64,000 nucleotides of DNA from Octopus vulgaris (Eukaryota): positions 2,108,001 through 2,172,000 of the forward strand of contig OX597833.1 in assembly GCA_951406725.2 (NCBI GenBank), in the 5' to 3' direction. The translations under genes and the position numbers were made by a program. This document shows positions 14,819-47,465 of this stretch, piece after piece (within the stretch, counting starts at the first letter, position 1; every line of letters starts with the position of its first letter). A model generated the notes under the pieces. It saw nothing but the letters and a program-made list of their open reading frames with translations. It was not told the DNA's origin and did not search any database.

Positions 14819-15230
14819 TATAGTCAAGGACCAACCAATGAACAAATTAACCCCATTATCCAATATTTAATATTTCAAAGTGTGGTACTTGTTCTATCGG
14901 AATCTTTGGCGGAAATCTAAGCTATGGTGACGTAAGCAATCCAATAGCGGTTGCCATGTGGTGCTGGACAACTACAAAGACACAAATACACACACACACA
15001 CGCAACATATATGTACACATAAGCGCGCGCGCATTTATGGTGTACGTGTATATTTCAAACACACACACCTGTCTGTGTATGTGTGTGTGTGTTTGTACAC
15101 AGGTGAGCACATAAGTGCAAGACAAGGTGGAAAAAATAGTACTCGAATACCAAAGGTAGAGTAATATAATTTTTATGAAATTTTGCAGCTTTAATAAAAA
15201 GTATATATATATATACATATATACATACAT

Positions 15231-17627: not shown

Positions 17628-18140
17628 CGGAATGGTCATTTTGCCAGTTTAGCCAATAAAAACACACGCACTATGTATTTGGTGTTATTTTGCTTCAGTG
17701 TTATTTATTTTTTAACATTAATCTTAATCTTATTTCGGCCAGAGTTCTTTCGTCACTGGCAAAATGACCATTCCGAAATATAACAATATCTGTTTCAACA
17801 CACGACTTCACATAAAAATCTTGCACAACAAATATATAAACGTATATATATATATATACATACAAGTATGTTCAGGACTTAGTGCTTGCTTTTTCCATTA
17901 GTATGAGTATTACATTTATGTTTTACGTATTTATCGCTGAGGAGGGGAAAATTCTTATGAATGAACTCTGAAATTGGACCCAATATGGTAATAACGGAAT
18001 TTTTTAGAAATTTCTTTCGGCTTGTTTCGAGACGCATAAATTATAATGGTTATTGACAATTTTGTCTATTTTCGGCATATTTGGCATTAGAATTTTTCTT
18101 TTGCCCTTATTTTATAAGTAATATATATATACATATATGT

Positions 18141-22597: not shown

Positions 22598-22809
22598 ACA
22601 TATATACATAGAAGGCAAGAAACGCAGATGAGGGCAGCAACGTCAAACTCCGTCATCCGCCCAATGTCACACATCAGAAGAGTTTTAGTGAATGTATAGT
22701 AAAGTAAATGGCTGTGCTCTAGCATGGCCGCAGGCCTTGGACTGAAACTTAAGAAGTGAAAGAATACACATGCAACTATACGTACATAGAGATATCACGT
22801 CACTTTGTA

Positions 22810-24696: not shown

Positions 24697-26100
24697 TTTA
24701 TTATGTTTGACTTTTGTTTTGTATTTGTACAAGTTGGCTCCAAGTCTCACCCAGAGATCACAAGAGACAAGTTAGAAGTTCATGTTGGTGTTATGCCTAG
24801 GGTGTCATATATTTGGTTTTGTACATAGTATTATTTTAGAAAATGTTTAAGAAAACAAGAAAATTATGAGTTTGTTTTAAAATTTGAGATTATATAGACA
24901 GTATTTTACGTAGGATATGGGCAGATCCCATGAGCACTATCTTTGGAATTTCTGCTATTTTGGTGTTTCCTGATATCTGAGCTAGGTAGCAATCAGCCTC
25001 TTTTGCTATCATTCCCAGGACACCTATAACAACAGGTATTGTTTTAGTCTTCAGGTTCCACATTTTGCCAATTTCTATTTCGAGATCTTTATATTTGCTC
25101 AGTTTTTGGTAAGTCTTGACAGATACGTTTATATCGATTGGGACAGTCATATCAATGAGGAGGCATGACTTTTGTCTGAAGTCTTTCAATATGATGTCTG
25201 GCTATTTGCATCTATTTTTCTGTCAGTTTGAATGGTGAAGTTCCAGAGGAGTGAGATGTGATCATTTTCATGCACTAGCGGTGATTTGTGTTCCGACCAG
25301 TTTTTATCATGGGGCAGGTCCAGGGTTTTATAAATTACCCAGTGAATATATTGTGCTGCTCTATCATGCCTGTTGAGATACTCTGTTGGCGCTAGAAGAC
25401 TGCACTTGGAGACAACATGATCAATGGTTTCATTTTGTTGTCGACATACACGACATGTTGGGCTACTGCCGTTCTTTAATATGTTGGCCTGGTAGTTTCT
25501 TGTTGGTAGGCATTGATCTTGGGTGTGGAGGCGCAATGGCCCAGTGGTTAGAGCAGCGGACTCGCGGTCATAGGATCGCGGTTTCGATTCCCAGACCGGG
25601 CGTTGTGAGTGTTTATTGAGCGAAAACACCTAAAGCTCCACGAGGCTCCGGCAAGGGATTGTGGTGATCCCTGCTGTACTCTTTCACCACAACTTTCTCT
25701 CACTCTTACTTCCTGTTTCTGTTGTACCTGTATTTCAAAGGGCCGGCCTTGTCACTCTCTGTGTCACGCTGAATATCCACGAGAACTACGTTAAGGGTAC
25801 ACGTGTCTGTGGTGTGCTCAGCCACTTACACGCTAATTTCACGAGCAGGCTGTTCCGTTGATTCGGATCAACCGAAACCCTCGTCGTCGTAGCCGACGGA
25901 GTGCTTCCATGATCTTGGGTTGCTATGATAAACCCTTCTGTCTCTGATTTTAAGCCAGAAGACACTAACCATTGATTGGTAAGGGCTTTGTCAACATCGG
26001 CACTTTTAGCTCTTTTGGGGTATTTGCAATTAAGAGGTATTTCTTGCCATTTATGTGTAAGAATATCTAAGGCAGTAGTTTTAGCAGGTACATCAGTTGT
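24696..26100 (-). mobile_element. 5'-truncated R4/Dong-type LINE (zinc knuckle plus restriction-like endonuclease), frameshifted and interrupted by a SINE
   Basis: ETEGFIIATQD|QCLPTRNY..CRVCRQQNETIDHVVSKC (CCHC)..RHD..LLWNFTIQTD..CLLIDMTVP..KLSKYKDLEIEIGKMWNLKTKTIPVVIGVLG; ends in (TAA)n. Confidence 0.9.
25525..25909 (+). mobile_element. SINE family C (tRNA-Arg-like), full length, 11-bp TSD
   Basis: A-box TGGCCCAGTGG, B-box GGTTTCGATTCC; TSD TGATCTTGGGT at 25514-25524 and 25910-25920. Confidence 0.92.
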
Positions 26101-26458
26101 TCGAACATTGTGGAGCAGACATCGTCGACATCGACCGAGATCCATTTAAGTCACGCCATTATATCTACATGTATGCGTGTAATAGTGCTTCAGTGTGCGT
26201 GTATGTAAGTTAATAGCTTGAGGAACAGGTAGGAATAAATACATCAGTTTAGGAAAGTGAAAAATCGATTGTCACAAAAGCAAGGAGCCTCGTTGTGAAT
26301 TTATGTTCTTCTGAGAGATGTCTACGCTCAGATTACACGGGAGACGCATTCGGAACATATTGTTTATAGACATTATCACAGTTAACTGGATAAAGAATGG
26401 GATAGTGTGGGGAGGAGGTAAGAGATGAAGGGTGAAAGGACACAGTGTGAGGGAACTG

Positions 26459-34535: not shown

Positions 34536-34544
34536 ATATAGTTA

Positions 34545-34760
34545 ATTCAAACATGAAAACCCAAAGAGAAAACACTACGCGAGGACGTGGAACAAGTATA
34601 GTGTTATTGGACGCTCAGGAAAGGAAAGAAAGAAGGAGGGTCTAATGTTACGGGCGGAGCTCTTCGTCAGAAACATAGGAAACATAGGAAAAGGAACGTT
34701 CCAAGAAGGGAAGACGGAGGAAAAAATCGCCAACGGTACACGCGCGGTCACATTTTGAAT
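34545..34760 (-). mobile_element. Family H3 hammerhead-bearing short element (degenerate copy)
   Basis: Minus strand GTTTCTGACGAAGAGCTCCGCCCGTAACATTAGAC; inverted partner at 35190-35400. Confidence 0.7.
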
Positions 34761-34973: not shown

Positions 34974-35264
34974 TTTGTATACTTTGTTAAAAGCAGCAGA
35001 AATATTACAAAACTGTTACTCAGAGTTTCTACCTTTGGTATTTGTGTACTCGAAGCTCTGAGTAACAGTTTTTGTGATAATATTTCTGCTGCTTTTAATA
35101 AAGCATATTACTCTACCTTTGCTGTTTGAGTACTCTTACTTTTCACCTTGTTTCGCATTTATGTGCTTACCCAGGTATATATATATTCAATATGAGACCA
35201 CGTGTGTATCGTTGGCAATTTTTTTTCCTCCGTCTTCATTTCTTTGGACCTTTCCTTTTCCTAT

Positions 35265-35299
35265 GTTTCTGACGAAGAGCTCCGCTCGAAACGTTAAAT
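35265..35299 (+). ncRNA. Minimal type I hammerhead ribozyme motif (family H3)
   Basis: GUUU CUGACGA A GAGC-UCC-GCUC GAAAC GUU AAAU: canonical core, 4-bp stem II, palindromic AACGUU stem III, weak stem I. Confidence 0.65.
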
Positions 35300-35478
35300 C
35301 CTCCTTTCTTTCCTTTCCCGAGTGTCCAATAACACTATACTTGTTCCATGCCCTCGCGTTGTAGCGTTTTCTTTTTATGTTTTCATGTTTGGATTAACTT
35401 TATATATATATATATATATATGATAGATCGTTAGCTCCTACACGCATGTTTTTTCTCTCCTTGTTATTTTTCTGTGTA

Positions 35479-37394: not shown

Positions 37395-37449
<55 letters not shown>

Positions 37450-37453
37450 TTTA

Positions 37454-37590
37454 AAAGCAGCAGAAAATTCAACAAAACCTGTTACTCTGAGTTTCACGTT
37501 GCCGTTCGTCGGACAGTTTAGCAAAAACTGTCCGACGAACGGTAACGTGAAACTCAGAGTAACAGGTTTTGTTGAATTTTCTGCTGCTTT
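37454..37590. repeat. 66-bp-arm inverted repeat carrying a hammerhead-like fold on each strand (family H4)
   Basis: Arms 37454-37519 and 37525-37590, loop AGCAA, one mismatch; the element spans ~37447-37670 in (TA)n. Confidence 0.9.
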
Positions 37591-37667
37591 AAATAAAGCA
37601 TATTACTCTACCACTGGTATTTGAGTACTCTTTTTTCCACCTTGTTTCACATTTATGTGTTTACTCC

Positions 37668-40196
<2,529 letters not shown>

Positions 40197-45504: not shown

Positions 45505-45818
45505 GTGTGTGTTATTGTGTCTTCGTTCGATCCCCACCGCCGCTTCACAACTGGTGCTGGTGTGTTTGCATCACCTTAACTTAGCGTTAGGCAAAAGAGA
45601 CCGATAGAAAAAGTGCCAGGCATAGTTATATATATATATATATATATATAGCAACGAATTGCCTCACCACACACCGAATTTAGAAATAGCAGTCAAAGAG
45701 ATATAGCTATTCCTTCTACTAAAAGGGAGATCTCAGTAAAAACACAGCACTTGAAAGGCAAACACAGACAGGTAAGAGAGAATGAAATGACGGCAATCTA
45801 TCATACAATTTTAAGTCA

Positions 45819-45910
45819 CCTACGGACGTACGTTTCGAAATCAAGTTTTAGGAAAGCATAAGAATTAGAAAATTCTACCTTACACAAACTTCCTTTCTCA
45901 TCAGCGTAGG
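45819..45910 (-). ncRNA. Type I hammerhead ribozyme, canonical core, extended stem II
   Basis: Minus strand: CCUACG CUGAUGA GAAA..(long hairpin)..UUUC GAAAC GUAC GUC CGUAGG; stem I 6 bp, GUC cleavage triplet. Confidence 0.88.
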
Positions 45911-46401
45911 ATACTACAATTATGAATAATTGTATATTAAATTTTGAGATACTAGAAGGCATCATCTCAACTCAGTGTCAGAGCGAGCCAAAGCATTACC
46001 AGTACCACGAAATTCAAAGTGTGAATGAAAGTTTGTGTCACCAGCCCCTTTCCACCCGCGTGTAGCCAAGACAAGATGCTGTGGTCGTTTACTGGGATAA
46101 AATATGGTTATCAGTAACAATACAGGGTGAAATTAATTAATTTGGAATAATTATCAATTACACCAAGTAGATTTCGGCATGTAAAAGCCTCATTCGAGGA
46201 AAATTTAAGTAATACTAAGCAATTAAGGGTTTAGCAACGAATTGCCTCACCACACACCGAATTTAGAAATAGCAGTCAAAGAGTTATAGCTATTCCTTCT
46301 ACTAAAAGGGAGATCTCAGTAAAAACACAGCACTTGAAAGGCAAACACAGACAGGTAAGAGAGAATGAAATGACGGCAATCTATCATACAATTTTAAGTC
46401 A

Positions 46402-46493
46402 CCTACGGACGTACGTTTCGAAATCAAGTTTTAGGAAAGCATTAGAATTAGAAAATTCTACCTTACCCAAACTTCTTTTCTCATCGGCGCAGG
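46402..46493 (-). ncRNA. Second copy of the hammerhead (CCGAUGA core, G-U in stem I)
   Basis: Minus strand: CCUGCG CCGAUGA GAAA..UUUC GAAACGUACGUC CGUAGG. Confidence 0.7.
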
Positions 46494-46819
46494 ATACTAC
46501 AATTATGAATAATTGTATATTAAATTTTGAGATACTAGAAGGCATCATCTCAACTCAGTGTCAGAGCGAGCCAAAGCATTACCAGTACCACGAAATTCAA
46601 AGTGTGAATGAAAGTTTGTGTCAAAGTTTTAGTAGAAGGAATAGCTATAACTCTTTGACTGCTATTTCTAAATTCGGTGTGTGGTGAGGCAATTCGTTGC
46701 TAAACCCTTAATTGCTTAGTATTACTTAAATTTTCCTCGAATGAGACTTTTACATGTCGAAATCTACTTGGTGTAATTGATAATTATTCCAAATTAATTA
46801 ATTTCACCCTGTATTGTTA

Positions 46820-46872
<53 letters not shown>

Positions 46873-47175: not shown

Positions 47176-47209
<34 letters not shown>

Positions 47210-47237
47210 TTTATTCAAAAGCAGCAGAAAATTCAAC

Positions 47238-47284
47238 AAAACCTGTTACTCTGAGTTTCACGTTCCCGTTCATCGGACAGTTTT
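47238..47284 (-). ncRNA. Hammerhead-like motif, family H4 (CCGAUGA core)
   Basis: AAAACUGU CCGAUGA ACG-GGAA-CGU GAA ACUC-A-GAGU A ACAG-G-UUUU. Confidence 0.55.
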
Positions 47285-47465
47285 TTGCTAATATATAATA
47301 TATAATATAAAGTTACAAATTGAGATTGGGGTTGTAAGTGCAACCCTCCATGGGATAACATATATCCAATATACTGCTAATACATAAATGTTAAGAACTG
47401 CGATGCAGTTAATTCATTTACTGTATTATATGGACAAAGGTAAAATGCTTTACCACAAATAAATA

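Follow-up and report, generated by a model that had tools for sequence, protein, structure and literature searches.

A hammerhead-like motif on both strands of an octopus palindrome, probably left by insertion of a Penelope-like element end

Layout of the palindrome and its motif

A hammerhead-like motif on both strands of one short palindrome raises the question of whether the locus is an element built to carry a ribozyme in each polarity or whether the second motif is a by-product of how the DNA was inserted. We addressed this question for a palindrome from Octopus vulgaris within a 64-kb window, by which we mean the whole stretch that was analysed, and which is AT-rich eukaryotic DNA with (TA)n runs throughout. 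The palindrome sits between two such runs and consists of two copies, arranged head to head, of a short and very common animal repeat, here called the H4 family. Its parts are the following.

37399..37446, no strand: left (TA)n target microsatellite
37444..37519, minus strand: inverted short arm with hammerhead-like motif (C3 at 37512, loop GCAA, A17 at 37483)
37520..37524, no strand: head-to-head joint; other copies have a palindromic CTAG joint that is 5 nt longer
37517..37576, plus strand: type I dimer-type hammerhead-like motif (from the fold and comparison with the Hydra table)
37517-37531/37562-37576, plus strand: stem I of the plus arm, 15 positions with 14 pairs and one A-G mismatch
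37532-37538, plus strand: core CCGACGA (U4C)
37539-37548, plus strand: 3-bp stem II with GUAA loop
37549-37551, plus strand: GAA
37552-37560, plus strand: palindromic stem III (ACUC-N-GAGU), with predicted cleavage after A37561
37585..37603, plus strand: small hairpin with AATAAA (37592-37597) and short 3′ end near 37603 (from the fold and contig loose ends)
37604..37669, plus strand: one-sided 66-nt tail, with the long 3′ end at 37669
37604-37629, plus strand: bulged hairpin opening the tail, 43 nt after A17
37670..37727, no strand: right (TA)n target microsatellite

The 66-bp inverted arms described in the first-pass annotation are present at 37454-37519 and 37525-37590, complementary at 65 of 66 positions, with a sole mismatch, 37501/37543, that falls on the N of the stem II loop. 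Beyond these limits the arms keep pairing as far as about 37444/37603, except for a gap of 3 nt on the left, and the fold of the palindrome is far stronger than that of shuffled sequence (z = -18.5; 0 of 200 shuffles equally good). The two sides are not equivalent. The left arm stops at the short 3′ end, its 3-nt gap falls at the AATAAA hairpin and the 5′ strand of its extended stem I is mostly lost, whereas the 66-nt tail is found on the right arm only.

CCGAYGA cores occur at 37532 on the plus strand and at 37512 and 47276 on the minus strand, with loops GUAA, GCAA and GGAA, just as had been reported, and the further copy at 47238-47284 indeed has a CCGAUGA core and a GGAA loop. All three intact arms of the window carry C instead of U at position 4, again in agreement with the annotation, so that the canonical core C3 U4 G5 A6 N7 G8 A9 is found in none of them. 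The remaining hallmarks (G12 A13 A14, A15.1-U16.1, H17 and three helices) are all present in the plus arm when it is read as a dimer. The assertion that the loop is always GNRA holds for the three arms, but only one position varies (G-N-A-A) and the arms are few; over 66 nt, differences among the three are confined to N7 and this loop II letter. A coding cause of the variable letter, as the third position of a GGN codon, was considered and rejected, since, read by eye, the frame in each copy stays open for no more than about 30 codons. In the left arm, stem-loop II (10 nt, 37496-37505) is identical to the tabulated loop II of Penelope-2_NV, by chance or as the remnant of a longer helix.

With a relaxed hammerhead descriptor, the real window gave 5 sites and 40 shuffled windows together gave 2 matches; 3 of the 5 are H4-family arms, which are relatives and not independent matches, and the others are a site at 35269 and a loose match at 17937. 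The match at 35269 is a canonical minimal hammerhead in a different repeat. This second family forms an inverted pair, 34540-34760 (minus) and 35185-35400 (plus), 82% identical, that flanks the H4 relative at 34978, and its plus copy carries the CUGACGA core of the hammerhead at 35269. A search of the whole window against Rfam gave no match at gathering level, and at E up to 10 the only matches were to miRNA and snoRNA models of hairpin shape, all below cut-off, with no hammerhead model among them.

The family in the window and in public runs

Besides the palindrome, the window holds three further copies, which brings the total to four.

47204..47291, minus strand: solo short arm with CCGAUGA, loop GGAA and short 3′ end, TA-rich on both sides
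34978..35178, plus strand: older relative, with an inverted arm, a tail-hairpin-like piece (35028-35051), and a direct arm with tail
15100..15203, minus strand: decayed relative, a short inverted stub and a tail with intact tail hairpin (fold z -3.07)

The relative near 34988-35100 had been said to keep the arms and to have lost the core, and both arms of the copy at 34978-35178 do start at G12. An inverted, 5′-truncated copy placed head to head is seen at 37444-37603, at 34978-35178, at 15100-15203 and at joints in run X17, and in all three fold-backs of the window the short end lies on the inverted part and the tail on the direct part. The tail hairpin of the decayed relative is at 15138-15162. 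The first-pass annotation mentions neither this relative nor the tail and the 15-position stem I of the plus arm of the palindrome.

Other repeats lie close by. Beginning 20 bp beyond the solo arm, 47311-47420 is a separate multi-copy repeat with depth in 4 of 4 runs, and 45649-46832 is a fold-back unit whose arms are 206 bp long (98%) and which contains a direct duplication of 392 bp that adjoins (TA)n; the 150-aa frame of the unit gave no Pfam match. A decayed pogo-like DNA transposon occupies 38356-39620 on the minus strand, with pieces of DDE_1 (E 6e-18) and BrkDBD (E 3e-08). On the same strand, 24890-26145 contains end fragments of a non-LTR retrotransposon with a weak zf-RVT match, and similar C-terminal pieces lie at 22753 and 43607.

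Part of the stretch is contained in 20 of 24 listed public runs. Contigs matching 37518-37675 number 8,082, 6,131 and 15,406 in runs X1, X2 and X7 and 185 in a fourth run; contig counts are not copy numbers, and the types assigned to the runs, such as DNA-type, are guesses, none being recorded as RNA. From the counts in the three DNA-type runs we infer that H4 is a high-copy repeat. The short end recurs among these contigs: behind 37603, 36 contigs of X1, 42 of X2 and 77 of X7 have (AT)n loose ends, which confirms a second fixed 3′ end.

Within 37548-37629, differences of at least 2% in the DNA-type runs fall in loop III (A to C at about 8%, A to T at 2-3%), at C37599T, which turns a G-C into a G-U pair in the AATAAA hairpin, and in the tail hairpin, both in its loop (37613, 37615) and at its bulge (37622); past this hairpin more differences appear, at 37630-37641. 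The variant tables do not cover the core or loop II, since they omit even the known variants at N7 and in loop II, and conservation of C4 and of the GNRA loop thus rests on few copies. Position 4 can be followed in loose ends, with C4 in X17, C4 together with G5A in X2, X7 and X20, and U4 in one contig of X10. Because C4-G5 is a CpG, forms with U4 and A5 are what decay of a C4 source is expected to give, and may be such decay products. The loose-end consensus also suggests that in one subfamily the outer stem I (37517-37531/37562-37576) carries compensatory changes, the two sides coming from different contigs.

At the 5′ boundary, the depth of contigs on the solo arm all but vanishes past 47286 in each of 4 runs; loose ends past this position have CTAG in common and then diverge. 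Three X17 contigs behind 47285 continue into a second, inverted arm via a perfect palindrome, of which the joint at 37520-37524 lacks 5 nt, and two more joints lie behind 47280 and 47282. The GCAA loop of the left arm recurs in another copy, a loose end of X17 behind 47280. Upstream of stem I the sequence is heterogeneous, with loose-end agreement of 0.48-0.65 in most groups. Contig ends did not pile up at A17 in the public runs, although contigs show ends poorly, and pattern scans of viral contigs, metagenome contigs and prokaryote genomes returned no related loci.

Hydra-clade ends and predicted activity

We compared H4 with the 26 tabulated hammerheads of Hydra-clade Penelope-like elements (PLEs) in File S2 of Craig et al. 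2021 (PMC8557442). In that table a 4-bp stem III with a 1-nt loop occurs in 17 of 26 rows, exactly ACUC-N-GAGU in 5 of 26, and a GNRA tetraloop II in 5 of 26, and many rows have a U before GAA, as H4 does. A type I hammerhead with a 4-bp palindromic stem III near the 3′ end is a Hydra-clade feature that H4 has, and the closest known ends are especially those of Hydra-2_Amil, Hydra-2_Ajap, Hydra-1_Ajap, Penelope-3_HM and Penelope-16_HM. Hydra-2_Amil further agrees in stem I (CUGU/ACAG), A17 and a GNRA loop II. By eye, its tail hairpin begins 43 nt after A17, the spacing of H4, Hydra-2_Ajap has a hairpin of similar build with a spacer of 38 nt, and whereas the hairpin closes these two elements, Hydra-1_Ajap opens with a similar one; no description of such a hairpin was found in the consulted passages of PMC8557442. 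Both groups insert into (TA)n, which the same source lists as the target of 26 of 27 Hydra families.

H4 departs from Hydra ends in C4, a 3-bp stem II with A10.1-U11.1, a 15-position stem I, the lack of an attached ORF and its 66-nt tail. The tabulated rows have U4 in 26 of 26, in a set collected with a descriptor that required U4 (PMC8557442). The length of the tail, 66 nt as against the usually cited 30-40 nt, counts against an origin from a PLE, as does the mixed sequence upstream of stem I, which is not expected if autonomous parents were numerous. The octopus element Hydra-1_Obim has a different hammerhead, as tabulated, and is not established as the parent, and neither the 69 ORFs of 30-52 kb nor 7 chosen others, among 241 candidates in the window, matched the RT (DKT motif) or the C-terminal GIY-YIG endonuclease expected in a Hydra-clade ORF. 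H4 is thus likely a derived end of a Hydra-clade PLE, and we do not assign it as a member.

The dimer-type reading of the motif agrees with its predicted fold. For two plus arms the free minimum-energy structure is a double hammerhead (-34.2 kcal/mol), with intermolecular stem III pairs at 0.93-0.99 and stem II at about 0.5, which bears out the proposed hammerhead-like fold, as does the occurrence of the same stem III in published Hydra-clade hammerheads (PMC8557442). The energy of the dimer is unexceptional (41 of 500 shuffles as low), and in the solo arm (47204-47291) the double-hammerhead fold lies 1.0 kcal/mol above the best structure. It had been proposed that stem III can form only intermolecularly; the dimer is indeed preferred, but a monomer with a 3-bp stem III and a 3-nt loop reaches -10.4 kcal/mol against about -12.5 for the best fold. 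In the clipped minus arm the hammerhead fold costs 8.8 kcal/mol over the best, and in the plus transcript of the full palindrome the hammerhead helices have a predicted probability of 0.00. Transcription from one side of the palindrome to the other would yield an RNA whose predicted fold is an inert duplex of roughly 70 bp, which suggests that the motif on both strands is likely non-functional.

Published PLE hammerheads of the short-stem-III type cleave weakly and act as dimers (PMC4209133; Lunse et al. 2016 as cited in PMC6765202). Minimal PLE dimer hammerheads, as described in PMC4209133, resemble H4 in an unstable palindromic stem III, a predicted dimer and mostly solitary truncated copies with some opposite-strand pairs, and differ in that H4 has U4C, a short rather than a long helix II and no G10.1-C11.1 pair. 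The core change itself has a natural precedent in a viroid hammerhead with U4C, which is reported to be much weaker in vitro and still active enough for infectivity (Perreault et al. 2011, PMC3088659); H4, in contrast, is a high-copy animal retroelement repeat with a predicted dimer-type fold and no evident tertiary contacts. Very short stems II occur in hammerheads (PMC3088659). Given that both dimer-type PLE hammerheads and the natural U4C case are weak, U4C together with a 3-bp stem II likely leaves low or no hammerhead activity here, and spread of the family need not depend on cleavage.

We also observed A-to-G differences on the hammerhead strand in the region 47244-47252 (corresponding to 37556-37564), at A17 (7.5, 9.3 and 13.3% of depth in X17, X18 and X8) and at A1.1 (3.6, 7.7 and 12.4% in the same runs). 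They are at 0 in X10 and give no row at 2% in X1, X2, X7 and X20; the difference in X20 is instead T-to-C at 37560 (8.9%). Minimal hammerheads are known to be impaired by a G at position 17 (PMC3884650). The changes at the predicted cut site may reflect A-to-I editing, for which contig data from runs of guessed type give a hint.

Origin of the palindrome and its meaning

We consider it likely, with a probability of roughly 0.8, that the two head-to-head copies arose in one insertion of the non-coding 3′ end of a Hydra-type PLE, with the enzyme encoded elsewhere. What was inserted would be the hammerhead, the AATAAA hairpin and the tail. In this scheme an endonuclease would nick a (TA)n run on both strands. 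Of the two cDNAs, one would start from the short end (about 37603) and its partner from the end of the tail (37669); both would extend to the 5′ foot of stem I, where they would join via the self-complementary CTAG, with 5 nt fewer at this locus. Insertion of two inverted cDNAs would place the motif on both strands, which is then likely a by-product of insertion. Head-to-head inverted copies are an ordinary form of PLE insertion (PMC8557442, PMC3846280, PMC4209133), and an inverted 5′-truncated copy with a one-sided tail has been described for PLEs (PMC8557442, PMC3846280). Penelope-13_HM has an inverted 5′ copy and, for that reason, a hammerhead on both strands (PMC8557442), and minimal PLE hammerheads have been found near one another on opposite strands (Cervera and de la Pena 2014, PMC4209133). 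A purified PLE enzyme has been shown in vitro to cleave AT-rich DNA on both strands and to extend both, with synthesis beginning at two positions in the RNA, one on either side of the tail; mutation of the hammerhead did not block insertion (PMC11167929). The element studied there, Poseidon of Anolis (Frangieh et al. 2024), resembles H4 in that it targets AT-rich DNA, has a tail with a start site at each end and carries a hammerhead near the end; it belongs to another PLE clade and its hammerhead overlaps the ORF start, whereas the H4 motif is crossed by no open frame.

A PLE origin could also have produced the palindrome through self-priming (snap-back) of one strand instead of the use of both target strands. 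Palindromes at head-to-head joints have been read in this way (PMC3846280), and the 65 of 66 identical positions of the arms and the perfectly palindromic joint of other copies are in keeping with it. Self-priming, however, predicts identical arms and one type of end, whereas this locus has two fixed ends and arms that differ at loop II. The differing position is one that varies among copies, and the GCAA of the left arm recurs in the X17 copy; a single random difference would fall on one of the three free positions only about 3 times in 66. That the arms differ solely at this letter, and that GCAA exists elsewhere, favors two templates, on the evidence of one locus, and we regard self-priming as unlikely. 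It is less probable still that the arms are the clipped ends of a longer non-coding retrozyme that cleaves itself, circularizes and is copied by a PLE enzyme. Animal non-LTR retrozymes are, like H4, non-coding, hammerhead-bearing and likely mobilized by PLEs; they carry type I hammerheads and have themselves been proposed to derive from PLE ends (PMC7229834; bioRxiv 10.64898/2026.07.22.740005). Against this stand the absence of direct tandem repetition from all four window copies, a unit of only about 85-150 nt, the sharp 5′ boundary with mixed DNA upstream and the lack of an end pile-up at A17, which contigs would show poorly.

The presence of the motif on both strands, and the recurrence of the joint in three X17 contigs, would fit a purpose-built element of two polarities, either a viroid-like replicon or an RNA switch with one hammerhead per strand. 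Solo arms and other joints exist, however, the viral contigs gave no match, and the predicted folds (a helix probability of 0.00 in the full transcript and the 8.8 kcal/mol gap of the minus arm) do not provide a foldable ribozyme on each polarity of one RNA, as a viroid-like element would have. We give this explanation very little credence. The implied novelty of ribozymes presented on both strands is not supported, head-to-head copies being ordinary for PLEs. Equally hard to credit is a MITE-like or fold-back DNA element whose likeness to a hammerhead is due to chance. Long inverted arms within (TA)n, the lack of an Rfam hammerhead match and the deviation at position 4 speak for such an element, but shuffling seldom produces descriptor matches (2 in 40 windows), Hydra ends agree with H4 in stem III, stem I, A17 and the tail hairpin, the tail is asymmetric and solo arms exist. 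For the T-rich/CTAG 5′ boundary a splice acceptor was also considered; Hydra ends are, in the tabulated sequences, T-rich upstream anyway.

Insertion of a PLE end into both target strands, our preferred reading, leaves room for a bolder scheme that we think improbable. H4 would be a minimal non-autonomous passenger of Hydra-type PLEs whose slow U4C dimer hammerhead pairs two template RNAs, one for each nicked target strand; the tail hairpin, found 38-43 nt after the cut site as far as coral and sea-cucumber elements, would be the recognition signal of the enzyme, and host A-to-I editing at A17 and A1.1 would stop cutting.

The head-to-head layout is known, and what is new is a U4C core with a 3-bp stem II in a PLE-type hammerhead. 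We found no paper on a U4C hammerhead in an animal retroelement, although Lunse et al. 2016 or the supplement of PMC4209133 might list C4 variants; a literature search on U4C returned the viroid case only, and one on CCGAUGA hammerheads nothing related. The H4 family did not appear in the octopus, hammerhead and Penelope literature, in Hydra-clade literature since 2021 or in the supplement of the O. vulgaris repeat paper, which is without consensus sequences, and it may already be catalogued in Repbase or Dfam. Descriptor searches that demand CUGA miss the U4C variant, and counts of the motif in animal genomes may accordingly be low. The tail hairpin may be the signal that Hydra-type enzymes recognize, and the allele difference between arms makes the use of one or two templates countable. 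With the U4C family, nature provides a small test of whether cleavage by the hammerhead is needed for a PLE to spread.
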